NCBI RefSeq assembly: GCF_000012905.2
Contig: NC_007493.2
Coordinates: 1,530,001 to 1,562,000, forward strand
Direction: 5' to 3'
DNA: 32,000 bases
Origin: Cereibacter sphaeroides 2.4.1
GTDB taxonomy: Bacteria > Pseudomonadota > Alphaproteobacteria > Rhodobacterales > Rhodobacteraceae
A program made the translations under genes and the position numbers. Position 1 is the stretch's first letter; every line of letters starts with the position of its first letter. Of the stretch, positions 1-29,993 are shown one piece after another. The notes under the pieces were generated by a model that was given only the letters and a program-made list of their open reading frames with translations, had not been told where the DNA came from and ran no database searches.

Positions 1-1089
1 CTGGGCCTCGATCCGCCAGAAGTTCACCGGCCAGCCCACCGCGAAGAACTGCGCGACCTTGTGGACATAGTGCTTCTTCGTGATCCGGTTCCAGGCTTCC
101 TGCACGTCGTCGTGGTGGACCTTGATCCCGTATTTCTCGAGCGGGAGCATGTAGGTGCGGTAGTAGTCCTCGAAGATCCAGCGGTGCCACATCTCCGCGT
201 AGGATTCCTTGTCCTTGTCGCGGTTGGTGGTGCCGTATTCGATGAAGGTGCCGATGGCCGCATCGACGATGGCGTGGTTCTGCCAGAAGGCATAGCGCAG
301 GTCGCGCTCGAGCAGCAGGTGGTTCTCCGGCTCCTTCAGCGCGGCCATCAGGAGCGAGTGGCCGTTGCCGATGTGCCGGCTCTCGTCCGACTGGACCGAC
401 AGGAAGACGGTGGGCAGCGCATAGTCGCCATTGCGCGCCGCTTCCGACGGCATGGCCACGAAGAGCGTATTGGTGAAGGCGGTCTCGGCCACCACCGTCA
501 GATACATGCAGGCGGCCGTCATCGTGTCGCCGGTGATGAAGCCCTCGCCGAACTGCCGGCCGATGGTGGTCGCGTAGCACTTGCCGAAGGCTTCTTCGGT
601 GATGTCGAACCCGGCCGGGTCGATGTAATTCTCCATGTACCACTTCTTCAGGTTCATCTGGATCGTGGAATGGCGGAATTCATCGACCATCTGCATGGTG
701 AAGCCGGTGCGCAGATCCTCGCCGGGGGCAAGGCGGGCCACCATGGCCATCGAGCGCGCGGCCGAAATCTCCGGGAACGGGATGATCGCCAGGAACAGCT
801 TCATCCATTCGACCCAGCGCGGCTCGACATTGCGGAACATGTCGCCGCGCAGCGCCGCATCGAGGGCGCCATAGACGCGGTTGTCCTTCTCCTCCTGCAT
901 GGGGAAGTAGGACCGCAGCACCTGTTTCATCGGGTCGCGCGGCGCCTTCGAGATCTTGTAGTCGGTCGGGAAGGTCGCCGCCTCCTGAACGTAGGTGGGG
1001 TTCCACCCGAGGTCGGAGATCTTCTTGGTCGCCTCGCCCACGGAGATTCCGCGCTGCGAGGTGATCTTGTTCAAGGTGAGGGACGTCAT
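1..1089 (-). CDS. Soluble di-iron monooxygenase (SDIMO) hydroxylase alpha/large subunit, PrmA/MimA-like (propane/acetone/phenol-type). N-terminal 363 codons only; the C-terminus runs off the left edge.
   Basis: Not in the ORF track because it is edge-truncated. My own minus-strand translation starts at ATG 1089 (GGAGG 8 nt upstream) and stays open in frame to position 1. It reads MTSLTLNKITSQRGISVGEATKK..SYFPMQEEKDNRVYGALD..FPEISAAR..MVDEFRHSTIQMNLKK..IGRQFGEGFITGD..YLTVVAETAFTNTLFVAMP..SVQSDESRHIGNG..ERDLRYAFWQNH..ESYAEMWHRWI. The di-iron ligand pattern is E107/E137/H140 plus E202/E236/H239, with the same 30/3 and 34/3 spacing as MMOH-type hydroxylases. Confidence 0.88.
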   Translation of the reverse strand, partial: MTSLTLNKITSQRGISVGEATKKISDLGWNPTYVQEAATFPTDYKISKAPRDPMKQVLRSYFPMQEEKDNRVYGALDAALRGDMFRNVEPRWVEWMKLFLAIIPFPEISAARSMAMVARLAPGEDLRTGFTMQMVDEFRHSTIQMNLKKWYMENYIDPAGFDITEEAFGKCYATTIGRQFGEGFITGDTMTAACMYLTVVAETAFTNTLFVAMPSEAARNGDYALPTVFLSVQSDESRHIGNGHSLLMAALKEPENHLLLERDLRYAFWQNHAIVDAAIGTFIEYGTTNRDKDKESYAEMWHRWIFEDYYRTYMLPLEKYGIKVHHDDVQEAWNRITKKHYVHKVAQFFAVGWPVNFWRIEAQ

Positions 1090-1110
1090 GCCATGAGCCT
1101 CCATCTATGG

Positions 1111-1130
1111 CGTGGGAGCCTGCTCCCACG
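1111..1130 (-). other. Hairpin (8-bp stem cgtgggag/ctcccacg, 4-nt loop) in the monooxygenase 5' leader, about 20 nt upstream of its start codon
   Basis: Perfect inverted repeat read directly from the sequence. Function unknown; it could be an mRNA-stabilising 5' stem or a regulatory structure. Confidence 0.3.
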
Positions 1131-1373
1131 GAATGCGGCCGGGGGCCGCCCTGGGTCTGCGGATCACGGCAAAGGTTCAGGTCACTGCCCCGCGGCGCAC
1201 CGTGCCGCCGGGCCTCCTCCCTTCGTTCTTGCGCCTTTGGGCCCTGAGGGCCGTTCGGACTTGTTGTGATCCTCCTGCCGCACAGCCGGTGCCACCGGCG
1301 GCAAAAGGCCGCGATGAAATGGCTTTTCAAGCGTCAACATTCTGAGACTGAAGGAAATATTTTTTCTGCGGCA

Positions 1374-1391
1374 TGCGCCACAGGCGTGCCC
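1374..1391 (-). promoter_or_regulatory. Candidate sigma-54 (-24/-12) promoter facing the monooxygenase gene
   Basis: The minus strand reads gGGCACGcctgTGGCg. GG-N10-GC spacing is correct. The -24 element GGCACG matches 6/6 of TGGCACG after the first base; the -12 element TGGCG matches TTGCW at 3/5. An A/T-rich tract lies just downstream. It would give a ~275-nt leader. Comparable partial matches occur by chance inside coding DNA here (e.g. 17928), so this is tentative. Confidence 0.3.
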
Positions 1392-1430
1392 GGCGCATCC
1401 CCATCCGTCGTGGCTCGCGGTCAAGGCCCG

Positions 1431-1442
1431 TTACAGCTGTAA
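1431..1442. promoter_or_regulatory. Perfect 12-nt palindrome TTACAGCTGTAA (dyad 1), a candidate regulator/enhancer-binding-protein site
   Basis: Read directly. An A/T-rich 12-mer is very improbable in ~69% GC DNA. A TTACAGC half-site recurs at 1462-1468 and the dyad recurs at 1556-1566. Confidence 0.45.
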
Positions 1443-1555
1443 TGGGCACTGTCACGGCCCTTTACAGCGCCGGGTGCCGCGGCATGATTCGCCGCCGTTT
1501 CAATCGTTTCCGCGCCGCGGCGCACCCTTTTGCAGGTGCGAAGGTAGCAGGACGA

Positions 1556-1566
1556 TACAGCTGTAA
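1556..1566. promoter_or_regulatory. Second copy of the dyad, TACAGCTGTAA (10-nt perfect palindrome TACAGCTGTA)
   Basis: Read directly. Centre-to-centre distance to dyad 1 is 124 bp, about 12 helical turns. Confidence 0.45.
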
Positions 1567-1659
1567 CGGTGCGCCGTAACATCCTGCGACAGTGCTCCGC
1601 GCCCGGGCCGAAAAAAGTCACCCCGCATATCCATAAAAGGCCATCGGAGCCGATCCGCC

Positions 1660-1675
1660 CGGCGCGGACCCTGCT
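1660..1675 (+). promoter_or_regulatory. Candidate sigma-54 (-24/-12) promoter for the orf1-rpoN operon
   Basis: The plus strand reads cGGCGCGgaccCTGCTa. GG (1661-1662) -N10- GC (1673-1674) spacing is correct. GGCGCG matches GGCACG at 5/6 and CTGCT matches TTGCW at 4/5. The predicted start (~1685) lies 10-25 nt before the orf1 start codons (1695 GTG / 1710 ATG). The dyads lie ~100 and ~225 bp upstream, a typical UAS geometry. Confidence 0.35.
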
Positions 1676-1709
1676 AGGCTGAGGGCAGCGGACAGTGCGG
1701 AGACAGCGC

Positions 1710-2174
1710 ATGCCAGCCAGTCAGGTTCCCTCCTTCCCGCCCGAAGCCGCCTCGCGGCGCATCGCCAATGAACTCGTGGCGCGCGCGCCGCAGGACCTGA
1801 TTTTCACCATGCGTTTTCTGGGCGAGAGTCAGGATCTGCTTCAGTCGCATTTCCGCGCCTTCCTGACCCGGAGCCTCGCCCATGCCGGCGCCACCCCCGA
1901 GGAGCATCCGCTGCTGCCCTTCTTCGTCGACAGCCATGCGGCCGAGATGCGCGACTTCGTCTTTACCGGCGCGGCCCTCGCCCGCCCGTTTCACCTGCAG
2001 GAGATCGAGGCCCTGACGGCGGATGCCGAGACAATGCTGCGCGTCGATATCTGGGATGCGATCGCCAGCCTGATCGAGATGGCCGAGGCGCGCTTCGCCG
2101 AGGGCATCGGCACCGTGGTCGAGCGGCTTCGCGAGCAGGAGGCGGCGGTGCGCCCGCCGCGGCGCGACCCATGA
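1710..2174 (+). CDS. Hypothetical protein (orf1, 154 aa from ATG 1710; alternative GTG at 1695)
   Basis: ORF track 1695..2174. High GC3 with host-like codon usage. GGAGA lies 6 nt upstream of ATG 1710. Its stop overlaps the next start as ATGA (2171-2174). I recognise no family. Confidence 0.65.
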   Translation: MPASQVPSFPPEAASRRIANELVARAPQDLIFTMRFLGESQDLLQSHFRAFLTRSLAHAGATPEEHPLLPFFVDSHAAEMRDFVFTGAALARPFHLQEIEALTADAETMLRVDIWDAIASLIEMAEARFAEGIGTVVERLREQEAAVRPPRRDP

Positions 2175-2392
2175 TGGAGCGGGCGGGTCTGGTGGCGGAG
2201 GTCGCGCGCCGCATCGCCGAGCAGCAGCGGGCGGCACGGCGGCTGGCCGGCCTGCAGATTGCGGACGGGCCGGACGAGGCCATCGCCGAAGCGCTGGCAG
2301 AGGTCCGCGAGGCCACCCTGCGTGTGGAGGAGGCCGAACAGCGCCTTGCCGCTCATGACGATGCCGCGAACGGCACAGGAGGACGGACGTGA
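2171..2392 (+). CDS. Hypothetical small charged, Ala/Glu/Arg-rich, probably helical (coiled-coil-like) protein (orf2, 73 aa)
   Basis: ORF track 2171..2392. ATGA overlap with orf1 and GTGA overlap with orf3 (2389-2392) indicate translational coupling. GC3 is high. Confidence 0.55.
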   Translation: MMERAGLVAEVARRIAEQQRAARRLAGLQIADGPDEAIAEALAEVREATLRVEEAEQRLAAHDDAANGTGGRT

Positions 2393-3474
2393 ACCAGAGC
2401 TTCAGCCCCCGACTTCTCGACCTTCTGGCCCGAAGCTGGCAGCGCCCGGCCGCCATCGCCGAGGTGATGTTCGATGCGGCCGGCACAGCCGTCCTGTTCC
2501 GGGACGCCAAGGGCGGTCTCACCCTCGGCGCCGTGGCCGACGGCGAACCCGCCTCGGCGCGGATGCGGATGGAGGGCGACGTGGGCCGCATGACCATCCG
2601 GCCCCGGCGCCGGGCGCTGCCGCCCCTGATCGAGCCCGAAGCGCTGCCCGCCGCCGCGGCGGTGGCGGTGCTGCCGCGCGGCGGCTTCGCCGTGGGCGGA
2701 GCGGATGGATCGGTCCATCAGGTCACGCCGCGCGGACAGGTGGTCCGGCTCCGCGCCGCCGGAGGAGATCCGGTGCAGGCGCTGGCCGTCGATCCCACCG
2801 ACGGGCAGCTGGCGCTGGCTCTTCCGGGCCGGGTGGTGCTGCGCGAGGATGGAAGCGAAGGGACAGTCCTCGAGGCCCGGGCGCGCGCGCTGGCCTTTGC
2901 CGAGGATGGCACTCTTGCAATCTCGACCGCGGACGGGCTGTGGCTCTGCGCCGGGCAGGCTCCCCGCAGATATCCCCTGCCCTCGGCACAGGGACCGCTC
3001 GCCCTCTCCGGGCGCTGGATCGCCGGGGCCTGCGAGGGCGCGGGCATCTGGCTTCTGGAGCGGGACAGCGGACGGCTCGCCCATCTTGCCGGATTTCCGA
3101 CCGCCTCCCGCTCGGTGCTTCTTGCCTCCGGCGGGACGCTCGTCGCCTCCGGCGCCTTCCGGCTGGTGGCCTGGTCGCTCGACCGTCCGCCCTTCGCGGG
3201 CGATCACGGCGGCGCCCTCGCCACGGGGACCGCCTCGGCGGTGGCGGTGACCTGCGCCGCGGCCCATCCCACGCGGGATCTGGTGGCTTTCTCCCGGGCG
3301 GGAGGCGAGCTGGTCCTGGCCCGCCTCGGCAGGCCTGAGGAGCTGGTTCTGCTTCCCGGCAGCGGCGACGAGATCACCGCCCTCGCCTTCGCCCCCGGCG
3401 GCCGCCACATGGGCCTCGGCACGGCGAGCGGGACGGCAGCCCTCGTCGAACTTCCCGACATGATCTTCAAGTGA
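2389..3474 (+). CDS. WD40-like / beta-propeller repeat protein (orf3, 361 aa), function unknown
   Basis: ORF track 2389..3474. GTG start with GGAGGA 6 nt upstream. There are roughly 7-8 repeats of ~40 aa of the type ..ALAF/AVD..DG.LA...DG.v.l (e.g. VQALAVDPTDGQLALA, ARALAFAEDGTLAISTADG, ITALAFAPGGRHMGLGTASG). GC3 is ~88%, whereas the competing frames (2259..3338 +, 2353..3408 -) are Arg/Gly/Pro junk. Confidence 0.72.
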   Translation: MNQSFSPRLLDLLARSWQRPAAIAEVMFDAAGTAVLFRDAKGGLTLGAVADGEPASARMRMEGDVGRMTIRPRRRALPPLIEPEALPAAAAVAVLPRGGFAVGGADGSVHQVTPRGQVVRLRAAGGDPVQALAVDPTDGQLALALPGRVVLREDGSEGTVLEARARALAFAEDGTLAISTADGLWLCAGQAPRRYPLPSAQGPLALSGRWIAGACEGAGIWLLERDSGRLAHLAGFPTASRSVLLASGGTLVASGAFRLVAWSLDRPPFAGDHGGALATGTASAVAVTCAAAHPTRDLVAFSRAGGELVLARLGRPEELVLLPGSGDEITALAFAPGGRHMGLGTASGTAALVELPDMIFK

Positions 3475-3503
3475 GACCCGATCCGTAAACGAAAGGACCC
3501 GTG

Positions 3504-3695
3504 ATGACCCCCGATGCCAGCCCGGACGCCAGCAAGGACGACTTCTTCGCCCGCCTCGCCGGGATCTCCGACGAGATGATCGCCGCCCACGGTCCGGACT
3601 TCGCCATGGGTGCGCTGGTGCTTGCCGCCCGCTTCATCGCCTCGCGCAAGGGCGGCGAGCCGGGCGCCCCGCCCTCGCCCACGGCGGCTCACTGA
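3504..3695 (+). CDS. Hypothetical small protein (orf4, 63 aa; alternative GTG at 3501)
   Basis: ORF track 3501..3695. AAAGGA lies upstream. GC3 is high. The gene is 26 nt after orf3 and 19 nt before rpoN. Sequence: MTPDASPDASKDDFFARLAGISDEMIAAHGPDFAMGALVLAARFIASRKG.. Confidence 0.55.
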   Translation: MTPDASPDASKDDFFARLAGISDEMIAAHGPDFAMGALVLAARFIASRKGGEPGAPPSPTAAH

Positions 3696-3714
3696 GCGCC
3701 ACCGAGGGCACAGA

Positions 3715-4989
3715 ATGGTGTCGATGCAGCTCCGGCTGGGCCAGCGGCTGGCCCAGCGGGCCGTTCTCGTGCAGCGGGCCGAGATCCTTGAGGCGACCGG
3801 AACGGACTGGGCGGAGCGGATCGCGGCCGAGGCCCAGCGGAACCCGTTCCTGCGGGTGAGGCAGCCGGCCACCGCCGCGCCGATCCCCGAAAGCGCAGCC
3901 CTGCCGCCCGACCTGCACGCCTGGCTCGGCTCGCAGATCCGCATGGCCATGGCCGATCCCGAGGACCGGGCGCTGGCCTTCCGCCTGCTCGAGGCGCTGG
4001 AGCCCTCGGGCTGGCTGGGCCAGCCTCTGTCGCGCCTCGCGCCCGGCGCCGAAGAGCAGGCGGCGCGGGTGCTCCACCGCCTGCAGCAGATGGAGCCCGC
4101 CGGCATCTTCGCCCGCGACCTGCGCGAGTGCCTCATGTTGCAGGCGCGCGACCGGGGACAGCTCGATCCCGCGATGGCGGCCGTGCTGGATCGCCTCGAC
4201 TGTCTTGCCTCCGACGGACCGGCAGCCGTGGCGCGCGCAGCCGGGCTCGAGGAGCAGACGGTGCTCCGCTGCCTCGAGCTGATCCGGCGCATGGATCCGA
4301 AACCGGGCGCTGCCTTTGCCGCCGAAGACGCTCCCCTGCGCGAGCCCGACCTTATCGCGCGCCGCACCGCCTCGGGCTGGAGCGTCGAGCTGAACCGCTC
4401 GCTTCTGCCGGAGGTCCGGGTGGCGCCCCTGCCGGACGGCAGCCCGGCCGATGTCCGCCAGATGCATCAGGAGGCCCTGTCACTGGCAAAGGCGACCGGC
4501 TTGCGCGGCCGGACCCTCCTTGCCGTGGGGGCGCTGGTGGTGGAGCGCCAGCGCGCCTTTCTGGATGAGGGGCCGGCCGCCCTCGTCGCCCTGGGGATCG
4601 GCGAGGCGGCCGATGCGCTGGCCCTGCACCCGAGCACGATCAGCCGCACGGTCACTGGGTTGCTGATGGCGACCCCGCGCGGGCTTGTGGCGGTGCGCGA
4701 TCTCTTCTGCGCGCGGCTCGCGGAGGGCACCGGAGCGCTCAGCGCACCGGCCCTTCAGGCCTTGATCCGCGAGACCATTGCCGCCGAGAGCGCTCACGCG
4801 CCGCTGGAGGATGGCGAGATCGTCGAGGCGCTGGCCCGGCGCGGCATCCATGTCGCGCGAAGAACCGTGGCCAAGCACCGCACGCTCGCGGGTCTGCCGC
4901 CTGCCGCCGTGAGACGCAGGGCGGCTCCCTCGGGCTCGGAGGCAGTGGCCTTCGGCCGGCAGCCTGTCCCGCTCGGCGGCAGGAACTGA
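3715..4989 (+). CDS. rpoN: RNA polymerase sigma-54 factor (RpoN paralogue), short form, 424 aa
   Basis: ORF track 3610..4989 trimmed to ATG 3715 (GAGGG upstream). The trimmed start gives a region I-like N-terminus, MVSMQLRLGQRLAQRAVLVQRAEIL..NPFL. The DNA-binding HTH is LHPSTISRTVTGLLMATPRGL. The RpoN box ARRTVAKHR lies at 4855-4881. The acidic region II is essentially absent. Confidence 0.92.
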   Translation: MVSMQLRLGQRLAQRAVLVQRAEILEATGTDWAERIAAEAQRNPFLRVRQPATAAPIPESAALPPDLHAWLGSQIRMAMADPEDRALAFRLLEALEPSGWLGQPLSRLAPGAEEQAARVLHRLQQMEPAGIFARDLRECLMLQARDRGQLDPAMAAVLDRLDCLASDGPAAVARAAGLEEQTVLRCLELIRRMDPKPGAAFAAEDAPLREPDLIARRTASGWSVELNRSLLPEVRVAPLPDGSPADVRQMHQEALSLAKATGLRGRTLLAVGALVVERQRAFLDEGPAALVALGIGEAADALALHPSTISRTVTGLLMATPRGLVAVRDLFCARLAEGTGALSAPALQALIRETIAAESAHAPLEDGEIVEALARRGIHVARRTVAKHRTLAGLPPAAVRRRAAPSGSEAVAFGRQPVPLGGRN

Positions 4990-5107
4990 CCTCCGGCCCG
5001 CAGTCCGGATGCAGAGGGGTCTGCCGACCTACGATGGCAGAGCTCTGTCTGCGCGGCCTCCGGGAACGGGTTCCGGCCGCTCTCATCCGAGATCCTTCGG
5101 CCGGTTG

Positions 5108-5145: not shown

Positions 5146-7762
<2,617 letters not shown>

Positions 7763-8291: not shown

Positions 8292-9401
8292 TCAGGCCGG
8301 GGCGAGCTCCGTCCGGTCGCGGTAGAGCAGGGACTGGCCCTCGTGGAAGAGGTGCAGCCGGGCGGGGTCGGCGCCGAGGCGCACGGTCCGGTGGCGCAGG
8401 TCGGCCTGAATGCCGGGCAGCTTCGCCACCACCTGCCCGCCCTCGTCGCGCGGCACGAAATAGAGCAGCGTCACCTCGCCCAGGGCCTCGGTAATCTCGA
8501 CCTCGCCCTCGTAGAGCGGAGGGCCGTCGGTCTTGACCAGATCTTCGGGACGCACACCGAGATCGACCAGAAGCCCCAGATCCTCCGGGCTCGTCGGAAT
8601 CGCCGTGCGCGCCACGCCGCCTGAATCGAGCCGCACGACCGTCTCGGGGCCGGTCTCGACGATCTCGCCCGGCAGGAGGTTCATCGCGGGCGAGCCGATG
8701 AAGCGGGCGACGAAGGCATTGCGCGGGCGGGTGTAGAGCTCGAGCGGCGTGCCCACCTGGCTGATCCCGCCACCCTCCAGCACGACGATCCGGCTTGCCA
8801 GCGTCATCGCCTCGACCTGATCGTGCGTGACGTAGATCATCGTCCGGTCGGGCATCTTCTCCTTGAGCTGGGCGATCTCGATCCGCGTGGCCACCCGGAG
8901 CGCCGCATCGAGGTTCGAGAGCGGCTCGTCGAAGAGATAGACCTTGGGATCGCGCACGATGGCCCGGCCGATGGCGACCCTCTGGCGCTGCCCGCCGGAG
9001 AGCGCACGGGGCAGCCGGTCGAGATAGGGCGTGAGCTGCAGGATCCGGGCCGCGTTCTCGACGGCGAGGGCGATCTCGGCCTTCGACTGGCCCGCGATCT
9101 TCAGCGCGAATTCCATGTTCTGCCGCACGGTCATATGCGGATACAGAGCGTAGCTCTGGAACACCATGGCGATGCCGCGCTGCGCGGGCGGCACGTCGTT
9201 GACCACCTGCCCGTCGATCTCGAGCGTGCCGCCGCTGATCCGCTCGAGCCCCGCGATCATCCGCAGGAGCGTGGACTTGCCGCAGCCCGAAGGCCCGACG
9301 AAGACGATGAGTTCGCCCTTCTCGATGGTCAGATCGATGTCGCGCAGGACGCGCACCTCGCCATAGGCCTTCTCGACCCCGGTCAGCTTCAGATCAGCCA
9401 T
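8292..9401 (-). CDS. Sugar ABC transporter ATP-binding protein (MalK/UgpC/AglK type)
   Basis: Walker A GPSGCGKST, signature LSGGQRQR, Walker B VYLFDEPLSNLD, H-loop THDQ, and a C-terminal MalK-type regulatory domain. GGGAGGGG SD. Confidence 0.94.
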   Translation of the reverse strand: MADLKLTGVEKAYGEVRVLRDIDLTIEKGELIVFVGPSGCGKSTLLRMIAGLERISGGTLEIDGQVVNDVPPAQRGIAMVFQSYALYPHMTVRQNMEFALKIAGQSKAEIALAVENAARILQLTPYLDRLPRALSGGQRQRVAIGRAIVRDPKVYLFDEPLSNLDAALRVATRIEIAQLKEKMPDRTMIYVTHDQVEAMTLASRIVVLEGGGISQVGTPLELYTRPRNAFVARFIGSPAMNLLPGEIVETGPETVVRLDSGGVARTAIPTSPEDLGLLVDLGVRPEDLVKTDGPPLYEGEVEITEALGEVTLLYFVPRDEGGQVVAKLPGIQADLRHRTVRLGADPARLHLFHEGQSLLYRDRTELAPA

Positions 9402-9425
9402 TGTCCCCTCCCTTCCGGCGCACGC

Positions 9426-10547
9426 TCATTTCACCGACCCCGCCAGCAGCCCGCGCACGAGGTAGCGCTGCATCGCGAAGAACACGACGATCGGCACCGC
9501 GATCGAGACGAAGGCCGAGGCGGCGAGGATCTCCCAGTCGCCGCCGCGCGATCCCAGCAGCTCGCGCAAGACGCCCGTCATCACCAGCTGCTCGGGCGTG
9601 TTCGACAGGAACACGGTGGCCACCAGAAGGTCGTTCCACGTCCAGAGGAACTGGAAGATCGCAAAGCTCGCCAGCGCCGGAAACGACAGCGGCAGGATGA
9701 TCTTGACGAAGATCTGGAAGTCCGTGGCGCCATCGACGCGGGCGCTCTCGATGATCTCGCGCGGCAGGCCCACCATGTAGTTGCGCAACAGGTAGATCGC
9801 GAGCGGCAGGCCGAAGGCCGAATGGGCGAGCCAGATCCCGAGGTAGTCCTTGCCGATCCCCACCGCATTGTGGAGCTGCAGAAGCGGGATCAGCGCCAGC
9901 TGCAGCGGCACCACCAGAAGCCCCACCACGGCCGCGATCAGAAGCGCCCGGCCGGGAAATTCCATCCAGGCCAGCGCATAGGCCGCAAAGGCCGCCACGA
10001 GGATCGGGATGATCGTGGCCGGGATCGTCACCGTCATGGTGTTGAGGAAGGCGCGGCCGATCCCTTCGGCAAAGAGCACCCGCTCGTAATTGGCGGTCGT
10101 GAAGCGCGGCGCGGTATCGACCGCCACGAAGAGGCGCGGGCCGCGGTCCCCGAAGGGCTGTGCCGCCTCGGCGCGGTAGCTGCCGTCGGCCTCGACCGTC
10201 ACGCGGCCGCCGTTCGAAAGCTCCCCCGTCTCTCCGGCGGCATGGGCGAAGGGTGCGCGCGCCGAGGTGCCGAAGCGGTTCAGCGTCCCCTCCTCGGTCA
10301 GATCGCCCTCCACGATCCAGAGATCGCCGTCCTGCCGCTGCTCGTCCGCCCCGGCGAGCCGCACCACCATGCGCTGTTCCGCCGGGAAGAGCGCGGCCCA
10401 CCAGCCGGTCGCCGCGATCTGGTCGCGGTCGCGGAAGGACGAGACGAGGAGGCCCAATGTGGGCAGCGTCCAAAGGAGGACCAGCGCCACCACGGCCAGA
10501 TGGACCGCCCAGACGAGGCTCGATCGGGTGCCGGCGATGTTGTCCAT
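9426..10547 (-). CDS. Sugar ABC transporter permease (MalG/AglG-like), 373 aa, with a ~129-aa periplasmic insert after TM1
   Basis: This is the C-terminal part of track ORF 9426..11564, trimmed to ATG 10547 (MDNIAGTRSSLVWAV..). The start overlaps the upstream stop as TGATG. The EAA-loop region is ESARVDGATDFQIFVKIILPLSFPAL. Confidence 0.9.
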   Translation of the reverse strand: MDNIAGTRSSLVWAVHLAVVALVLLWTLPTLGLLVSSFRDRDQIAATGWWAALFPAEQRMVVRLAGADEQRQDGDLWIVEGDLTEEGTLNRFGTSARAPFAHAAGETGELSNGGRVTVEADGSYRAEAAQPFGDRGPRLFVAVDTAPRFTTANYERVLFAEGIGRAFLNTMTVTIPATIIPILVAAFAAYALAWMEFPGRALLIAAVVGLLVVPLQLALIPLLQLHNAVGIGKDYLGIWLAHSAFGLPLAIYLLRNYMVGLPREIIESARVDGATDFQIFVKIILPLSFPALASFAIFQFLWTWNDLLVATVFLSNTPEQLVMTGVLRELLGSRGGDWEILAASAFVSIAVPIVVFFAMQRYLVRGLLAGSVK

Positions 10548-11539
10548 CAGCGGGTCTCCTTCCGGGCGTTGGCGATGTTCCAGATCATGATCGGCGTCAC
10601 GAGGACCATGATGACCAGCGCCACGGCCGACGCCCGGCCCGCGTCGTTGCCGCGAAACATCCAGTCGAACATGAGGTTGGCCAGCACCTGCGTGCCCCAC
10701 TGGCCGTTGGTCATGGCCAGCACGATGTCGAAGACCTTGAGTACGAGGATGGTGATCGTGGTCCAGACCACCGCGATCGTGCCCCAGATCTGCGGCACCT
10801 TGATCCTGAGGAAGATCTGCAACGGCGAGGCGCCGTCGAGCACCGCGGCCTCGACCGTCTCCTCGGGGATGCCGCGCAGGGCGGCCGAAAGGATCACCAT
10901 GGCAAAGCCCGTCTGGATCCAGATCAGCACCGCCATCAGGAAGAAGTTGTTCCAGAACGGGATGGCGAGCCAGGTCTGCTCGGTGCCCCCCAGCCCCTCG
11001 ATCACCGCGTTCAGGAGGCCGATCTCCTCGCGCCCCTCGCCGCGATAGTCGTAGATGAATTTCCAGATCACCGAGGCGCCGACGAAGGAAATCGCCATCG
11101 GCATGAAGATCAGCGCCTTCGCGAGGTTGCCCCAGCGGATCCGGTCGGTCAGCGCGGCCGCGACCAACCCGAAGAAGGTCGAGGCGGCGGGCACGACGAG
11201 TAGCCACAGGAAGTTGTTGCGGATCGACTCGCGGAACTTGGTGTCGTTCACCAGCCACTCGTAATTGGCGAGGCCCACGAATTTCTCGCCGCTCGCGTCG
11301 CGCAGCGAGAGCCAGATCGAGACGAAGACCGGATAGACGAGATAGATGCCGAGCAGCAGGATCGCGGGCAGAAGGAAGAGCCAGGGCCGGATCGCGCTCG
11401 CCCGGGAGATGTTGGCGCCGGCCCGGGGACCCCTGGCGGGATAGATCGCATCGAGGATCAGGTTGGCGGCAAAGAAATAGGCCACGCAGCCGAACACCCC
11501 CACCACGATGGTGCCCCCCGCCATCATCAGCTGGTCCAT
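10547..11539 (-). CDS. Sugar ABC transporter permease (MalF/AglF-like), 330 aa
   Basis: ORF track 10547..11539. Multiple TM segments. The EAA-loop region is EAAVLDGASPLQIFLRIKVPQIWG. GGAGGAAGGAGG SD. Confidence 0.9.
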   Translation of the reverse strand: MDQLMMAGGTIVVGVFGCVAYFFAANLILDAIYPARGPRAGANISRASAIRPWLFLLPAILLLGIYLVYPVFVSIWLSLRDASGEKFVGLANYEWLVNDTKFRESIRNNFLWLLVVPAASTFFGLVAAALTDRIRWGNLAKALIFMPMAISFVGASVIWKFIYDYRGEGREEIGLLNAVIEGLGGTEQTWLAIPFWNNFFLMAVLIWIQTGFAMVILSAALRGIPEETVEAAVLDGASPLQIFLRIKVPQIWGTIAVVWTTITILVLKVFDIVLAMTNGQWGTQVLANLMFDWMFRGNDAGRASAVALVIMVLVTPIMIWNIANARKETR

Positions 11540-11584
11540 GCCGCCTCCTTCCTCCCCGCGGCAAGCGCCGCCTCCGGCCCCGGA

Positions 11585-11603
11585 CTGCCCGGGCGCCCGG
11601 CAG
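11585..11603. other. Imperfect GC hairpin in the binding-protein/permease spacer
   Basis: ctgcccgggcgcccggcag, read directly (5 bp, then 3 bp after a bulge). Its position after the SBP gene is typical of intra-operon mRNA-stabilising or attenuating stems. Confidence 0.25.
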
Positions 11604-11615
11604 CCGCCCGCCGCC

Positions 11616-12968
11616 TCACTTGAACGTATCCCAGGTCCGCTGGATGTCGGCGCCCACGCGCTCGGCGCTCTTGCCGCCCATGTAGTCGATCATGCCGGTC
11701 CAGAAGGCCCCCGCCCCCACCGCACCCGGCATCAGGTCCGAGCCGTCGAAGCGAAAGGTCGTTGCATTGAGCAGGATCTCTCCCATCTTGCGCAGCGTGG
11801 GATCCCCGTAGACATCGGTATTCACGCCGGTGAAAGGGGTGAGGAACCCGGTCTGCGCCATCCAGACCTCGTGCGCGATGGGCGTCTTCAGGAATTCGAG
11901 AAAGGCGCGCGCCGCCGGCGTGTCGCGGGTAAGGCCGAAGACCGTGCCCGCCCCCAAGACCGGCTGGCCCAGATCGCGGTCGGCATAGGCCGGCAGATAG
12001 AAGAAATCCGCATCCTCGCCGATCACCGTGCCTTCGGGAAAGAACGAGGGGATGAAGCTCGCCTGCTTGTGCATGAAGCACTGGGGCGGCGCGGAGAACA
12101 GGCCCTTCGGGCTGTCGCGGAAGTCGGTCGCGGCCACGGCATTCGGGCCTCCCGCCACGAAGTCGGGCGTGCGCGCGAACCAACCGAACTCCTCGATGGC
12201 GGCCACCACCTGCGGATCGTCGAACGGGATCCCGTTCGAGGTCCATTGATCGTAAACCTCGGGAGGGTTGATGCGCAGCATCATGTCCTCGACCCAGTCG
12301 GTCGCGGGCCATCCTGTGGCCCCCCCCGAGGCGAGGCCGATGCACCAGGGCGTCACCCCGTCCGCGACCATGCGCTCGGTCAAAGCGCGCAGCTCCTCCA
12401 TCGTCCGGGGGATCTCGTAGCCGAAGTCCGCGAAATTCTCGGGCACATACCAGACGAGCGATTTCACATCGATCTTGTAGAAGAAACCGTAGAGCGCCTC
12501 GGTGCCGTCCCGTCCGGGAAAGGTCCCGAGGCTCACCCAGCTCTCGCCCGCGGCGTAATTCTCGCGCAGCCAGTCGGCTGTCGCCGGATCGAGCGGCGCG
12601 AGCTGGCCCTTCGAGGCCAGATCCCGCGCCAGACCCGGCTGGGGAAAGACCGCTATGTCGGGAGGCGAGCCCGCGCCTGCGTCGATCACGATCTGCTGCT
12701 CGAAATTGTCCGAGCCGTTGTAGGTCACCTCGGCGCCGGTCGCGGCCTCGAAATAGGCGATGACCGAGTCGAACAGAGCCTTGTCCGGCCCCAGCCAGGG
12801 CCCGAGGATCGTCAGCCGCTGCCCGGCGAGATCCTGGCTCTTCAGCGCCTCGAAACTGTCCCAGTGAAAGCGCGCATCCTCGCCCGGGGGGAACCTCAGC
12901 TCCTGCCCCGCAAGCGGGCCGGAAACCAGTGCCAGCGCGGCCGCAATCGCGGGACCCCTCGCCTTCAT
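11616..12968 (-). CDS. Periplasmic sugar-binding protein of the ABC importer (AglE/GgtB-like, family 1 SBP), 450 aa
   Basis: ORF track 11616..13178 trimmed to ATG 12968 (GGAGG upstream). The signal peptide is MKARGPAIAAALALVSGPLAGQ. Length and pattern fit alpha-glucoside-type SBPs (from memory). Confidence 0.88.
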   Translation of the reverse strand: MKARGPAIAAALALVSGPLAGQELRFPPGEDARFHWDSFEALKSQDLAGQRLTILGPWLGPDKALFDSVIAYFEAATGAEVTYNGSDNFEQQIVIDAGAGSPPDIAVFPQPGLARDLASKGQLAPLDPATADWLRENYAAGESWVSLGTFPGRDGTEALYGFFYKIDVKSLVWYVPENFADFGYEIPRTMEELRALTERMVADGVTPWCIGLASGGATGWPATDWVEDMMLRINPPEVYDQWTSNGIPFDDPQVVAAIEEFGWFARTPDFVAGGPNAVAATDFRDSPKGLFSAPPQCFMHKQASFIPSFFPEGTVIGEDADFFYLPAYADRDLGQPVLGAGTVFGLTRDTPAARAFLEFLKTPIAHEVWMAQTGFLTPFTGVNTDVYGDPTLRKMGEILLNATTFRFDGSDLMPGAVGAGAFWTGMIDYMGGKSAERVGADIQRTWDTFK

Positions 12969-14629: not shown

Positions 14630-14647
14630 GCCAGTCCGGAGAACGCC

Positions 14648-15601
14648 ATGGCCGACGCGCCCCTTTGCCTCGTCGCCGACATCGGTGGCACGAACACCCG
14701 CGTGGCGCTGGCGGAGGGATCCCGGCTGCGGCCCGAAACGACGCGCCGCTTCCGGAATGCCGATTATCCTGCTCTGGCGCCGGTCCTGCGCGACTTCCTC
14801 TCCGTCGCCGGCAGCCCCGAGATCGACGGCACCTGCGTGGCCGCCGCGGGCCCGGTCCGGGACGGGGTGGCCCTTCTCACGAACCTCGCCTGGACCGTCG
14901 ACGGCGCCGAACTGCAGCGCGCGACCGGCGCGCCGCGCGTGGCGGTGCTGAACGATCTTCAGGCGCAGGGCCATGCGCTGGGCCATCTGGATCCGGCCAA
15001 TCTGCGCGTCCTGATCCCGGGGCCTACTCCCCGCCGCGGGGGCCCGATGCTCGTCGTGGGCGTCGGCACCGGCTTCAACGCGGCGCCCGTCCACGATGTC
15101 GCGGGCCTGCGCCTGGTGGCGGCCTCCGAGTGCGGCCATGCCGGGATGCCCGTCCGCACCGCGCGCGACCTCCGGCTCGCGGAATTCGTCCAGACGGCCC
15201 ACGGTTTCGCCGGCGTCGAGGATGTGCTGTCGGGCCGCGGTCTCGAGCGGCTCTATGCCTTCACCGCCGCTGAGGCCGGCCTCGAGGACCGCAAGTCGGC
15301 GGCCGAGATCATGGCGGCCATCGCCGAACCCGGCCCGGCGCGCGCCGCGGCCGAGCTCTTCGCCCGGCTCCTCGGCGCCGAGGCGGGCAATCTCGCCCTG
15401 ATCCACCTGCCCTTCGGCGGCCTCTATCTCTGCGGCGGCGTGGCCCGGGCCTTCGCCGCCCATCTGGGCCCGATGGGCTTTGCCGAGAACTTCCGCGACA
15501 AGGGCCGCTTCTCGGCCTTCATGGACGATTTCCCGGTCTGCATCGTCGAGGACGATTACGCGGCCCTCACCGGCTGCGCAGCCTACCTCGCCACCCTCTG
15601 A
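14648..15601 (+). CDS. glk: Glucokinase (Glk family)
   Basis: ORF track 14648..15601. ATP-binding N-terminus LVADIGGTNTRVAL, and ..GGLYLCGGVA.. further along. It starts 18 nt after the beta-glucosidase gene, with a GGAGA SD. Confidence 0.9.
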   Translation: MADAPLCLVADIGGTNTRVALAEGSRLRPETTRRFRNADYPALAPVLRDFLSVAGSPEIDGTCVAAAGPVRDGVALLTNLAWTVDGAELQRATGAPRVAVLNDLQAQGHALGHLDPANLRVLIPGPTPRRGGPMLVVGVGTGFNAAPVHDVAGLRLVAASECGHAGMPVRTARDLRLAEFVQTAHGFAGVEDVLSGRGLERLYAFTAAEAGLEDRKSAAEIMAAIAEPGPARAAAELFARLLGAEAGNLALIHLPFGGLYLCGGVARAFAAHLGPMGFAENFRDKGRFSAFMDDFPVCIVEDDYAALTGCAAYLATL

Positions 15602-15787: not shown

Positions 15788-16573
15788 TCAGGCCGCCGCG
15801 ACCGCCCGTTTCGTCAGCACCTTCACCAGATGCGCGCGGTAAGCCGGTGTCCCGTGCAGATCGCCGAGCAGCCCTTCCGCGGGAAGGATCAGATCCTCCA
15901 CCGCCTCGGGCCGGAAATCGGCCGACAGAGCGCTCTCCGCCTCGGTCCAGCGGAAGACCCCATCCTCGCCCGCTCCCGTCACCGCGACCCGCACCCCATC
16001 GGCAAATTGCGCCACGAACACGCCCACGAGCGCGAAGCGCGAGGCGGGCTGCGCGAATTTCATGTAGGCCGCCCGCTCCGGCAGGGGAAAGCGGACCGAA
16101 GTGACGATCTCGCCCTCCTCCAGCGCCGTGGTGAAGAGGCCCTGGAAGAAGTCCTCGGCCGCGATCTCGCGCCGGTCGGTGACGATGGTGGCCCCCGATG
16201 CCAGCGCCGCCGCCGGATAGCAGGCGGCAGGATCGTTGTTGGCAAGGCTGCCTCCGATCGTGCCGCGTGCCCGCACCGACGGGTCGCCGATCTCGCCCGC
16301 GAGCCAGGCCAGCGCCGGATAATGCGCCTTCGCCTCGCGCGCCACCACCCCGTGCGGCGTGGCGGCCCCCACGACGAGGCCGTCGTCGCCGCGGCAGACC
16401 CCCTTCATCTCGGCGATGTCGGCGAGGCTCACCAGCCGTTCGGGCGCCGCCAGCCGCTGCTTCATCGAGGGCAGCAGCGTCTGCCCGCCGGACAGCGCCT
16501 GTGCGCCCTCCGATCCGAGGGCCGCCACCGCTTCCGCCACCGACGAGGGTTTCACCAGGTCGAAATTGTGCAT
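15788..16573 (-). CDS. Molybdenum hydroxylase FAD-binding medium subunit (CoxM-like)
   Basis: ORF track 15788..16573. Motifs: ALSGGQTLLPSMKQRL and GTIGGSLANNDPAACYPAA. Confidence 0.9.
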   Translation of the reverse strand: MHNFDLVKPSSVAEAVAALGSEGAQALSGGQTLLPSMKQRLAAPERLVSLADIAEMKGVCRGDDGLVVGAATPHGVVAREAKAHYPALAWLAGEIGDPSVRARGTIGGSLANNDPAACYPAAALASGATIVTDRREIAAEDFFQGLFTTALEEGEIVTSVRFPLPERAAYMKFAQPASRFALVGVFVAQFADGVRVAVTGAGEDGVFRWTEAESALSADFRPEAVEDLILPAEGLLGDLHGTPAYRAHLVKVLTKRAVAAA

Positions 16574-16583
16574 GATCCCCTCC

Positions 16584-18956
16584 TCAGCCCTGCATCGCCG
16601 TCCAGACGCGCGAGGGCGTCAGCGGCATGTCGATATGGGTGACGTGACCGTGGCCCGCGCGCCGCAGCGCATCCACCACCGCATTGACCACCGCGGGTGG
16701 CGTCCCGATGGCCCCCGCCTCGCCGCAGCCCTTGGCGCCCAGCGGATTGTGGGTGCAGGGCGTGACGCAGGAATGGTCCACCGTGAAGGAGGGCACATCG
16801 TCCGCGCGCGGCATGGCGTAATCCATGTAGGAGCCGGTCAGGAGCTGACCGTCCTCGTTATAGACCACCCCTTCCAGCAGCGCCTGGCCGATGCCCTGCG
16901 CCACCCCGCCATGCACCTGACCCTGCACGATCATCGGATTGATGACATTGCCGAAATCGTCCGCGCAGGTGAAGCGCACGATGTCGACGCCGCCCGTCTC
17001 CGGGTCCACCTCGACCTCGCAGCCATAGGCGCCGGCGGGATAGGTGAAGTTCGCCGGATCGTAGAAGGCGGTCTCCTCGAGACCCGGCTCCAGCGTCTCG
17101 AGCGGGTAGTTGTGCGGCACATAGGCCGAGAAGGCGATCTCGGCGAAGCTCTTCTGCCGGTCGGTGCCCGCAACCGAGAAGCTGCCGTCGGTGAACTCGA
17201 TGTCGCCCTCGGCCGCTTCCAGCATGTGGGCCGCGATCTTCTTGCCCTTGTCGATGATCTTGTCGGCGGCCTTCATCATGGCCGAGCCGCAGACGGCGAG
17301 GCTGCGCGAGCCGTAGGTGCCCATCCCGAACGGGATCTTCGACGTGTCGCCGTGGACGATCTCGACCGAGTTCGCGTCCACCCCCAGCTTCTCGGCGATG
17401 AGCTGGGCAAAGACCGTCTCATGCCCCTGCCCGTGGCTGTGCGCACCCACCAGCACCGAGATGTTGCCCGTGGCATTCACCCGGATGGTTGCCGCATCGT
17501 AGAGGCCCACGCGGCAGCCGAGCACCCCCACGAGGTTCGAGGGCGCGATCCCGCACGCCTCGATCCAGGTCGAGAGGCCGAAGCCGCGCCACTTGCCGCG
17601 CTGGCGGCTCTCTTCGGCCCGCGCCTCGAAGCCCGCCGCGTCCGACAGCTCGTGCAGCTTGTCCATCGTGGCGTGATAGTTGCCGGTGTCGTAGACGAGG
17701 CCCACCGGCGTCGTATAGGGGAAGGCGCCGGGATCGATGAAGTTCCTGCGCCGGATCTCCCACTTGTCGAGCCCCAGCTCGTCGGCCGCCTTGTCGACCA
17801 CCCGCTCCAGCGAATAGGTGGCCTCGGGCCGCCCCGCGCCGCGATAGGCATCGACCGGCACCGTGTTCGTCAGCACCGCCTTCACATTCACATAGACGAG
17901 CGGGGTCTTGTAGGGCCCCGCCATCAGCGTGCCATGCAGGAAGGTGGGCGTGCAGGTGGCGAAGTTCGAGAGATAGGCCCCCATGTTGGCCAGCGTCTCG
18001 GTCCTGAGCGCGAGGAAGTTCCCCTCCATGTCGGTCGCGAGCTGGATCTTCGTCACATGGTCGCGGCCGTGCGCGTCCGACAGGAAGGCCTCGGAGCGGT
18101 CGCAGACCCATTTCACCGGCCGGTTCAGCCGCTTCGAGGCCGCGAGCACCGCCGCTTCCTCGCCGTAATGGTAGATCTTCGAGCCGAACCCGCCGCCCAC
18201 GTCGGGCGCGATCACCGTCAGCTTGTTCTCGGGGATCCCCATGACGAAGGCCGAGATCAAGAGCCGCGTGAGGTGCGGGTTCTGCGAGGTGGTGTAGAGC
18301 TTGTAGTCGCCCGTCCCGCTGTCGAAATCGCCGATCGAGGCGCGCGGCTCCATCGCGTTGGGCGAGAGGCGGTTGTTCACCAGTTCCAGTGTGGTGACAT
18401 GCGGCGCCGTCTCGAAGGCGGCATCGACGGCGGCGCGGTTCTCCTCGATCCAGCCCCAGTCGAAGACCACATTGTCCTCGATCTCGTCATGCACCCGGTT
18501 CGAACTGTCGGCCACCGCCTGCGCCATGTCGACGATGGCGGGCAGCTCCTCGATGTCGGCCTCGATGGCCTCGCAGGCATCCTTGGCCTGCTCGTAGGTC
18601 TCGGCCACCACCATCGCATAGGCATCGCCCACATGGCGGACCTTGCCGTGCGCCAGCACCGGGCGCTTCGGCTCCTTCATCGTGGCGCCGTTCCGGCTCT
18701 GGACCAGCCAGCCGGTCGGGTTGCCGCCCACTTCGGTGAAGTCTTCGCCCGTCAGCACCGCAAGCACGCCCGGCATCTCCTCGGCGGCGCTGGTGTCGAT
18801 CGAGCGGATGCGGCCATGCGCCACTTCCGAGCGCAGGAAGCAGGCGTGGGCCTGTCCGCGCAGGCTGATGTCGGCGGTGTAGCGGCCCTTTCCGGTCAGG
18901 AACCGGATATCCTCGCGGCGCAGCGTGCTCGCGCCGATGCCTCCGTCCTTCGGCAT
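16584..18956 (-). CDS. Molybdopterin-binding large subunit of an aerobic-type CO dehydrogenase / xanthine dehydrogenase family enzyme (form II CoxL-like), 790 aa
   Basis: ORF track 16584..19016 trimmed to ATG 18956 (GGGAGGAG SD; the longer start would overlap coxS). The N-terminus is [30 protein letters not shown]. The active-site loop AYRGAGR lies at 17829-17849. GGGFGSK is also present. Confidence 0.92.
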
Positions 18957-18984
18957 GAAACTCCTCCCTTTCTTGCTGGCCCGC

Positions 18985-19467
18985 TTATTCGGCGGCGAGC
19001 TTCCGGCTGTCGGCACCCGCGGCGGCCATGACCGCCTTGACGATGTTGTGGTATCCCGTGCAGCGGCAGATGTTGCCCTTGAGGTAGTGGCGCACCTCCT
19101 CCTCGGTCGGGTTCGGCTTCTCGTTCAGCAGCGCGGCCGAGATCATCACCATGCCCGGCGTGCAGAAGCCGCACTGGAGGCCGTGGTGATCCTGAAACGC
19201 CTGCTGGATCACCGAGAGCGAGCCGTCCTTGTTCGCCATCCCCTCGATCGTCGTCACGCTCTTGCCGGCCACGTCCTGCGCCAGCACGGTGCAGCTCTTC
19301 ACCGGCTCGCCATCGACATGGACGGTGCAGGCGCCGCATTGCGTCGTGTCGCAGCCGACATGGGTGCCGGTCAGCCCCAGCCCGTCCCGCAGGAAGCTGG
19401 AGAGGAGCGTGCGCCCCTCGGTCTCGGCGGACATGGGTCTGCCGTTCACGGTCATCGTGACTTTCAT
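18985..19467 (-). CDS. [2Fe-2S] small subunit (CoxS-like), 160 aa
   Basis: ORF track 18985..19470. That start is TTG, and I prefer the ATG at 19467 with GGGAGGG upstream. The two cluster motifs are [12 protein letters not shown] and CGFCTPG...CRCTGY. Confidence 0.92.
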
Positions 19468-19495
19468 CAATACCCTCCCTGATACCGTCTCGGGT

Positions 19496-20026
19496 TCAGC
19501 GCGAGATCATGCGCTTGAACCAGCCCTTCTTCGCGGGCGCCTCTTCCTCGGCGCCGACGGCGACAACCTCGGGCTCGTCCTCGGCAGGACCTTCCACGGC
19601 GGTCTGGAACCGCTCGAAGAACTGGTCGGCCATCTTGCGCGAGAAGCCGTCGATGATCCGGCTGCCCAGCTGCGCGAGCTTGCCGCCGACATGGACATCG
19701 ACCTCGTAGGACAGGAGCGTGCCGCCCTCCGACGGGGTCATCGCGACCTTGGCCGATCCGCGCGCGTGTCCCGCGGCCCCGCCCTTGCCTTCACCCGAGA
19801 TGGTGAGCGACTGCCCCTCCACGATGTCCGACAGCGTGACATGGCCGGTGAAGCGCGCCTTCACGGGACCCACCTTCTGGGTCACGATCGCCTCGTAGCC
19901 CTCGGAGGGGCTGCCCGTCAGGCTCTCGCATCCGGGAATGCAGACCCTCAGCACCTCGGGGTCGAGGATGGCCGCCCAGACCGTCGCAGGGTCGGCGGCA
20001 ATGGTTCTCTGATCGGCTAGCAGCAT
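19496..20026 (-). CDS. CoxG-like SRPBCC-fold accessory protein, 176 aa
   Basis: ORF track 19496..20026. The N-terminal pattern ..[35 protein letters not shown].. is typical of carbon monoxide dehydrogenase subunit G family proteins. An acidic linker and a basic amphipathic C-terminal tail follow. Confidence 0.85.
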
Positions 20027-22360: not shown

Positions 22361-22430
22361 GTCCGCTCCCGCTCCGCGTGGCGCATGGTCCTTCCCCCAC
22401 TGGGACGCAGGTCACCGCCCCGGCCCGCCC

Positions 22431-23603: not shown

Positions 23604-23700
23604 CGCCGTCCTCCCAGCCAGCAAACCTAATCTGCTGCCCGCACGGCTGACAAGCCGTTCGACAGGCCCCCGAAGCGCGCAGCCGCTGCCCAACCGGCTG

Positions 23701-24381: not shown

Positions 24382-24664
24382 GGCGGTCCCATACGTCTTT
24401 TCACGAGGCTAGCACATCCGCCTGACGCGATAACCCGGCCAAAGGTCGGAGCACCGGCGCCCTTGCCGCTACGGCGCACCGACCTGTTCTTACCGAGAGA
24501 GGCGGAGCCCCCCACTTCCCGGCCGGCCATACGGTTCGCGCATCTGTCGGTGCGGAGCGGTTCCCGCATCCTTCGGCCGCAGGCATGCCCGGATCCGCTA
24601 TGTTGAGCGCCGCGGCGCCTGCCGGACCGAGGGGTAGGTCCGGCGCGCCACCCGATGGCGAGGC

Positions 24665-24700: not shown

Positions 24701-28442
<3,742 letters not shown>

Positions 28443-28446
<4 letters not shown>

Positions 28447-29897: not shown

Positions 29898-29934
29898 CCG
29901 CTTCCCGTGGCGCGGGCGGTCCCGCCCCCGGCCT

Positions 29935-29986: not shown

Positions 29987-29993
29987 CGGGGCC

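Follow-up and report, generated by a model that had tools for sequence, protein, structure and literature searches.

Near the left end of a 32,000-nt stretch of Cereibacter sphaeroides 2.4.1 (contig NC_007493.2, positions 1,530,001 to 1,562,000; hereafter the window), five co-directional genes, orf1 to orf4 and a paralogue of rpoN encoding a sigma-54 factor, form the right arm of a ~14-gene island that encodes a soluble di-iron monooxygenase (SDIMO), probably of the Mim/Prm type (acetone/propane/phenol type). In the alphaproteobacterial loci compared, the orf1 to orf4 genes are partners of the SDIMO island and not of the sigma factor, and rpoN is a lineage-specific addition. As a whole, the island is best explained, with reasonable though incomplete confidence, as a self-contained sigma-54 regulon that has a dedicated sigma-54, activator, and promoter set. 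The genes at its right end within the window are as follows:

1-1104, minus strand: SDIMO large (alpha) subunit gene, 5' part, truncated at the start of the window and transcribed away from orf1
1710-2174, plus strand: orf1, 154 aa
2171-2392, plus strand: orf2, 73 aa, ATGA overlap with orf1
2389-3474, plus strand: orf3, 361 aa, GTG start, GTGA overlap with orf2
3504-3695, plus strand: orf4, 63 aa from the ATG (64 aa if the GTG at 3501 is used)
3715-4989, plus strand: rpoN paralogue, 424 aa, right-hand end of the island

Genomic context and distribution of the five-gene block

A previous reading of the window from its sequence alone (the sequence-only reading) had described five co-directional open reading frames (ORFs) with tight junctions, and both the coordinates and the overlaps were reproduced here. 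The gap between orf3 and orf4 is 26 or 29 nt, depending on the start chosen for orf4, that between orf4 and rpoN is 19 nt, and a sequence scan found no terminator-like site between orf1 and the end of rpoN. The coupling of orf1 to orf4 suggests a fixed stoichiometry of their products. That reading had also judged the ORFs to be real genes from their genome-typical G+C content at third codon positions, and this is borne out: the values range from 0.80 to 0.91 across all five, and the products are exact matches to the annotated C. sphaeroides 2.4.1 proteins ABA79024-ABA79028 (RSWS8N_04570 for orf1 to RSWS8N_04590 for rpoN in strain WS8N). Since conserved homologues of orf1, orf3, and orf4 occur at 35-70% identity in many genera, these are real genes, and the five ORFs are not chance products of a high-GC genome. 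The overall G+C content is 0.63-0.65 in the SDIMO alpha gene and the intergenic region (window 1-2000) and 0.74 over orf2 to rpoN (window 2001-5000), with a window mean of ~0.69.

The translation of positions 1-1104, which represents the N-terminal two-thirds of the alpha subunit, matches MmoX and other hydroxylase alpha chains (PDB sequence search, best E 2e-47). For the remainder of the island, the surroundings of orf1 (10 kb) were examined at locus L087 of a complete C. sphaeroides genome, where the full alpha gene encodes 560 aa with a Pfam Phenol_Hydrox match. At the left end of that locus, a plus-strand gene encodes a 645-aa activator with MimR_N, GAF, Sigma54_activat, and HTH_8 domains. 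The minus-strand arm then comprises, in order, genes for a zinc alcohol dehydrogenase (ADH), a GroEL-like chaperonin, a DUF59 protein, an amidohydrolase, an MmoB-type coupling protein, the small (beta) subunit, a ferredoxin-FAD reductase, and the large subunit, after which the divergent arm runs from orf1 through orf2, orf3, and orf4 to rpoN, with guaB convergent beyond it. The likeness to Mim/Prm systems rests on gene order and content, with the alpha-reductase-beta-coupling protein order and the GroEL-like, ADH, and amidohydrolase genes of group 5 SDIMOs, while in the PDB sequence search the nearest relative of the alpha subunit was MmoX. The statement of the sequence-only reading that this rpoN lies in neither the lptB-rpoN-hpf-ptsN nor a nif or flagellar context stands, the context being an SDIMO island.

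To describe how the island is distributed, we used an alignment of orf3 relatives, which were present in 136 species genomes. The best 80 of these 136 genomes are all from Alphaproteobacteria, mostly Mesorhizobium, together with Rhizobium, Sinorhizobium/Ensifer, several Rhodobacteraceae, Acidiphilium, and Rhodoblastus, and homologue searches found no relatives of orf1 or orf3 outside this class. At 87 loci with an orf3 relative, the island proteins were scored by tblastn, with rpoN counted as linked when it lay within 10 kb:

SDIMO alpha subunit, adjoining: 82/87 loci
SDIMO beta subunit: 80/87 loci
Reductase: 80/87 loci
Coupling protein (MmoB): 79/87 loci
Amidohydrolase: 77/87 loci
GroEL: 77/87 loci
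DUF59 protein: 76/87 loci
ADH: 71/87 loci
orf1: 79/87 loci
orf2: 79/87 loci
orf4: 85/87 loci
rpoN: 11/87 loci

The layout is near-constant, with orf1 to orf4 divergent from the SDIMO operon in almost all loci; in Rhizobium and Sinorhizobium, the ADH and activator genes are attached to the orf1-4 arm. Because the orthologues keep the SDIMO (82/87) but mostly stand without rpoN (11/87), orf1 to orf4 belong to the monooxygenase island. Linked rpoN genes occur only in Rhodobacteraceae or on metagenome contigs, in at least seven genera and three different arrangements. Four further loci showed rpoN in Haematobacter and a second Cereibacter lineage and not in Amaricoccus or Methylovirgula.

This distribution bears directly on the proposal of the sequence-only reading that orf1 to orf4 form a module dedicated to the sigma-54 paralogue, acting on it in an anti-sigma-like or partner-switching manner. 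The gene-neighbourhood comparison that it had suggested as a check was run, and the orthologues were found to co-occur with SDIMO genes and rarely with rpoN. The proposal agrees with the arrangement in Cereibacter, where the five genes sit in one tight operon that is uninterrupted by a terminator, and with the same layout being kept in the second Cereibacter lineage, where the island lies elsewhere in the genome. However, 76 of the 87 loci carry orf1 to orf4 without a linked rpoN, including the whole genera Mesorhizobium, Rhizobium, and Sinorhizobium. Even where rpoN is linked, a gene of 316-331 aa on the opposite strand separates it from orf4 in most Rhodobacteraceae islands, although this gene is absent in Cereibacter (L006:9330-10280 and L168:12420-13415, both on the minus strand; also L008, L009, L018, L050, L063, L078, and L085). 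This conserved intervening gene had no Pfam or NCBIfam match. In addition, Pfam, NCBIfam, and PDB profile searches of orf1 to orf4 detected no anti-sigma, STAS, PP2C, or kinase/HATPase-type domains. The model of a module that binds and controls this paralogue is thus largely refuted by the co-occurrence data, and we consider it highly improbable.

In the second Cereibacter lineage (L171:12044-13294 and downstream; orf1 71% identical), the same orf1-4-rpoN arm is followed by sugar epimerase genes in place of guaB. As the flank differs, the island is at another genomic position there, and it may move as a unit.

Promoter and palindromes in the divergent intergenic region

The SDIMO alpha gene and orf1 are separated by a divergent intergenic region of 605 bp, in which the following sites were located:

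1280-1294, minus strand: candidate sigma-54 (-24/-12) promoter of the SDIMO operon, TGGCACCGGCTGTGC, with a non-canonical -12 box (GTGC, not TTGC)
1431-1442, no strand assigned: palindrome TTACAGCTGTAA, candidate upstream activator site for a MimR-like enhancer-binding protein
1555-1566, no strand assigned: second, imperfect palindrome copy, ATACAGCTGTAA
1461-1488, plus strand: weak match to a sigma-70-type promoter ahead of orf1, TTTACA-16-CATGAT, by consensus only

An equivalent of the candidate sigma-54 site is present 175-305 bp upstream of the alpha subunit gene in nearly all orthologous loci, and its boxes covary with the linkage of rpoN. Of the 69 loci that have no linked rpoN, 68 carry a perfect TGGCAC-N5-TTGC directed towards the SDIMO operon, and the one remaining locus is on a contig that breaks off 1.2 kb past orf4. 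In contrast, each of the 11 rpoN-linked loci has an altered promoter, through a [C/G]TGC -12 box in eight and through an altered -24 box (TGGAAC-N5-TTGC) in three. Most of the rpoN-linked Paracoccaceae promoters read TGGCAC-N5-CTGCATGTATC, the Cereibacter promoter is TGGCACCGGCTGTGC, and that of Leisingera and Primorskyibacter is TGGAAC-N5-TTGCC. The same rule relating promoter and rpoN was seen in the four additional loci. It is the conserved position and this covariation that give weight to the site in the window. No sigma-54 site facing orf1 was found in the alpha/orf1 intergenic region.

Upstream of the promoter, the palindrome (TTACA-N2-TGTAA) is conserved in different orders; it is found in the alpha/orf1 intergenic region of Cereibacter, Gemmobacter, Neotabrizicola, Mesorhizobium, Sinorhizobium, Rhizobium, Acidiphilium, and Methylovirgula. 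We therefore regard the palindromes as putative binding sites of the activator.

The rpoN paralogue and the activator of the island

The sequence-only reading had taken the fifth gene for a short RpoN that could be one of the paralogues of Rhodobacter (now Cereibacter) sphaeroides without an assigned function. The species was correct, and the gene does belong to the poorly understood paralogues. The protein matches Sigma54_CBD (PF04963, 130.5 bits) and Sigma54_DBD (PF04552, 132.8 bits), and the RpoN box, ARRTVAKHR, is visible in the translation. Region I (PF00309) is divergent, scoring 19.2 bits, under the cut-off of 23.8, yet recognizable by eye, and the full-length model TIGR02395 scores 264.2, under its cut-off of 277.35. 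In other Rhodobacteraceae, too, orthologues of this rpoN lie next to such an island.

Since 2002, the standard example of a bacterium with four sigma-54 factors that cannot replace one another has been C. sphaeroides. RpoN1, RpoN2, and RpoN3 each pair with one activator and discriminate the -11/-12 region of their promoters. According to a 2025 paper, nothing is known about RpoN4 or about the activator RSWS8N_04525 (PMC11999139). By elimination, given that RpoN3 pairs with AprX, the island paralogue seems likelier to be rpoN4 than rpoN3. The rpoN-linked SDIMO promoters likewise differ from the general consensus near -12/-11, in a small number of independent lineages.

With regard to the activator, the sequence-only reading had noted that none of the partner genes encodes an AAA+ enhancer-binding protein. 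Within the window this holds, but a MimR-type activator gene closes the island outside it, 10 kb upstream of orf1. Counting the WS8N tags back from orf1 in steps of five places this gene at RSWS8N_04525. Among NCBIfam models, the island activator scores best against DhaR. RSWS8N_04525 has been listed among four DNA-binding enhancer-binding proteins of C. sphaeroides as a bona fide activator with an unknown target, and it is dispensable for the expression of xrpA, which depends on RpoN3 and AprX (PMC11999139). The terminal 292 nt of the C. sphaeroides activator gene lay within the flank examined, and a metagenome scan with the C-terminal 96 aa returned generic activators at no more than 45% identity and nothing else.

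It might be argued that the linkage between rpoN and the island has no meaning, and that the paralogue serves unrelated promoters, for example as RpoN3 at xrpA with AprX, while another RpoN reads the SDIMO promoter. The paralogue may be either rpoN3 or rpoN4, RpoN3 has a target elsewhere (PMC11999139), and the promoter match in the window is weak by itself, all of which would fit this explanation. It would, however, leave unexplained a linkage that recurs in at least seven genera and in three arrangements, as well as -24/-12 boxes that are altered in 11/11 linked loci and in 1/69 unlinked ones. Moreover, xrpA does not require the orphan activator encoded in the island. On balance, we find a fortuitous linkage improbable.

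Proteins encoded by orf1 to orf4

The orf1 product is a helical protein (predicted structure with a pLDDT of 79) of a small orphan family, which an exhaustive profile search of 1.84 billion representatives resolved into 43 clusters at 50% identity, with no distant relatives and no informative fusions. Its invariant residues include H47, H76, E100, D105, D113, and D116. In agreement with the sequence-only reading, which had assigned it to no recognizable family, Foldseek returned nothing below E = 1 for its model, and Pfam and NCBIfam gave nothing for orf1, orf2, or orf4 and noise only for all 37 orf1 relatives. PDB profile searches with the orf1 and orf4 alignments likewise gave no match, and neither fold nor PDB profile searches linked orf1 to known metallochaperones.

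The most conserved orf1 motif, DLxFxMRFLGESQxxLQxHF (residues 29-48, window 1794-1856), superficially resembles a Fis-type helix-turn-helix (AARxLGxSRxTLYxK). A DNA-binding role was considered for this reason and rejected: hhalign gave a probability of 0.2%, and AlphaFold draws a single low-confidence helix. Alignment of orf1 or orf4 against the island activator by hhalign was also negative.

The orf2 product is a weakly conserved antiparallel coiled coil whose PDB profile matches are designed antiparallel coiled coils only; in C. sphaeroides it is shortened to 73 aa, compared with 93-115 aa in other genera, and lacks the N-terminal part. The orf3 product was expected from sequence to be a WD40-like propeller with 7-8 blades, and the AlphaFold2 model indeed shows a WD40-type beta-propeller with ~8 blades (pLDDT 88, pTM 0.89). 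All of its top Foldseek matches are WD40 propellers of a generic kind (E down to 1e-13, TM 0.5-0.72), the Pfam ANAPC4_WD40 score is 23.2 against a cut-off of 22.9, and an N-terminal helix, LxDLLARxW, is conserved. The orf4 product is a highly conserved two-helix protein of ~60 residues with the motif SKDxFFxRxAxxSEEMxxxHGxDFxMGxLVLAARWIA, for which no relatives were found among known families or in the PDB. The 90%-identity cluster of orf4 includes one NCBI member of 387 aa (P0059); this is the length of an antisense ORF at 3204-4367 (minus strand), and the entry may stem from a gene-calling error in a single assembly.

None of orf1, orf2, and orf4 matched known controllers of activators in PDB sequence or fold searches. 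Literature searches gave no relevant report of WD40 proteins in connection with propane monooxygenase or of anti-sigma factors that act on sigma-54.

Proposed mechanism and alternatives

We propose that the MimR-like activator would sense the substrate, bind the TTACA-N2-TGTAA palindromes, and fire RNA polymerase carrying the island RpoN at an SDIMO promoter that has drifted from TTGC to GTGC/CTGC. The left arm would thus be read from the sigma-54 promoter in the divergent intergenic region, and the Rhodobacteraceae-specific rpoN is most likely the private sigma-54 of the island. The WD40 propeller and the three small helical proteins encoded by orf1 to orf4 probably form one cytoplasmic complex, which could modulate the expression or activity of the island at the level of the activator, either as a co-sensor or as an anti-activator.

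Several points weigh against this explanation. (i) The pairing of RpoN, activator, and SDIMO promoter is inferred only from linkage and covariation, and the correlation between promoter and rpoN comes from few independent lineages, namely Cereibacter, the Gemmobacter-Fuscibacter-Neotabrizicola-Haematobacter group, and Leisingera/Primorskyibacter. (ii) Taken by itself, the promoter match in the window is within chance, as there are 19 matches at up to two mismatches compared with ~29 expected. (iii) If the paralogue is rpoN3, it already has a different target (xrpA, with AprX). (iv) No homology, fold match, or fusion indicates a function for orf1 to orf4, and a role of orf1 in metal handling would fit its invariant His/Asp/Glu residues just as well. 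(v) In three Paracoccaceae loci, the linked activators are devoid of the GAFTGA loop, which is the usual contact of activators with sigma-54. These activators, from Haematobacter, Neotabrizicola, and one metagenomic relative (L006:11565-13403, L018:13546-15387, and L168:14692-16533, all on the minus strand), have a 10-residue deletion and read ..CFG-APGQPGLL.. where those of Rhizobiales read ..IFGHERGAYTNARxxGAPGLA.., while Walker A (GETGTGKE) is kept in all three. The loss of GAFTGA is at odds with a simple canonical model and may point to a non-canonical mode of activation.

For orf1 to orf4, we tentatively favor a regulatory complex, as a possibility that falls short of even odds. A role in the sigma-54/activator circuit would tie these proteins to the monooxygenase system and not to the paralogue. 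A different explanation is that they act on the di-iron hydroxylase itself, in its maturation or protection or in the delivery of metal to it, with rpoN having simply landed beside them. This would account for their near-perfect co-occurrence with the SDIMO structural genes and for the invariant His/Asp/Glu residues of orf1, which lie on a helical bundle as in metal-binding bundles; WD40 propellers are known as assembly scaffolds, and SDIMO clusters need dedicated helpers such as MimG/GroEL (PMC11825192). We nevertheless regard such a role as rather unlikely, and the regulatory complex is favored for the following reasons: (i) orf1 to orf4 are on a separately promoted arm, divergent from the sigma-54 operon that holds the chaperone-type genes and recognized helpers (GroEL, DUF59, amidohydrolase); (ii) it is to their arm that regulatory genes attach (rpoN, or ADH and the activator in Rhizobium/Sinorhizobium); (iii) actinobacterial Mim enzymes of like composition work without them, MimABCD being active in Escherichia coli with MimG alone (PMC11825192); and (iv) the module is confined to Alphaproteobacteria. 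The lack of similarity to known metallochaperones also speaks against assembly factors.

In its most complete form, the regulatory explanation would make orf1 to orf4 a WD40-scaffolded new signal-input or anti-activator module for the MimR-type activator, joined in Rhodobacteraceae by a private channel that combines a dedicated RpoN with an altered -12/-24 promoter and, in some of the genera, with a GAFTGA-less activator. This combination as a whole is unlikely. If true, the private channel with a GAFTGA-less activator would amount to non-canonical sigma-54 activation.

Comparison with known systems

The closest known system is the actinobacterial Mim cluster, which consists of MimABCD, MimG, Adh1, and an amidohydrolase and encodes an acetone-hydroxylating SDIMO of group 5 (PMC7176365, PMC11825192). 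The cluster of Mycolicibacterium smegmatis and M. goodii shares with the island the large subunit-reductase-small subunit-coupling protein order, the amidohydrolase, GroEL-like chaperonin, and zinc alcohol dehydrogenase helpers, and an activator with Pfam MimR_N, GAF, and sigma-54-interaction modules. The island differs from it in its alphaproteobacterial sigma-54 host, the conserved -24/-12 promoter, the divergent orf1-4 module, and the private rpoN in Rhodobacteraceae.

The soluble methane monooxygenase system (mmoXYBZDC, mmoR, mmoG) is similar in that an SDIMO operon is transcribed from a sigma-54 promoter and is accompanied by its own enhancer-binding protein and by a helper of the GroEL type, and MmoX is the nearest solved structure; unlike the island, it uses the single RpoN of the cell, has another subunit order, and contains no WD40/orf1-4 module.

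Within C. sphaeroides, the RpoN1-NifA, RpoN2-FleQ/FleT, and RpoN3-AprX pairs offer a comparable scheme, in which each paralogue works with a single activator on a promoter set of its own (PMC11999139). Here, the paralogue, the orphan activator, and the promoter with an altered -12 box are found in one island, and their pairing is our inference; further differences are that the target would be a catabolic monooxygenase and that the association is common to several genera. For orf1 to orf4, the working analogy is with non-DNA-binding tuners of activators, as in PspA-PspF, NifL-NifA, HrpV-HrpS, and DhaK/DhaL-DhaR. They have no sequence or fold similarity to PspA, NifL, HrpV, or DhaK/L, so that the analogy is functional speculation and does not imply membership.

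The presence of the rpoN paralogue, the orphan activator RSWS8N_04525, and the altered -12 promoter in one island leads to a direct, testable hypothesis, and makes the island a natural system for studying the co-specialization of sigma-54 paralogues, promoters, and activators. In addition, orf1 to orf4 constitute a conserved and wholly uncharacterized four-protein module attached to an SDIMO in more than 130 species. A module of accessory or regulatory proteins that has been overlooked is also of practical interest, because SDIMOs are prized for biocatalysis and bioremediation but are well known for the difficulty of producing them in foreign hosts.

Other features of the window

No Rfam families were found in the window. 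Three signalling genes on the minus strand, at 20159-24408, overlap or almost abut one another and read, from 5' to 3':

23701-24408, minus strand: response regulator with LuxR-type helix-turn-helix, first gene
22431-23717, minus strand: FIST-domain protein, second gene
20159-22411, minus strand: PAS-HisKA-HATPase-receiver hybrid kinase, third gene

The remainder is ordinary (5146-6600, 6788-7762, 8292-11689, 14630-15601, 15788-19506, and 24701-31601) and includes guaB, a SLAC1/TehA-type channel, a sugar ABC transporter, glucokinase, a CoxLMS-like molybdo-enzyme, and glycogen genes (glgX-, glgA-, and glgC-like). The ORF at 24701-26389 is a candidate phosphoglucomutase, a guess from the translation only.

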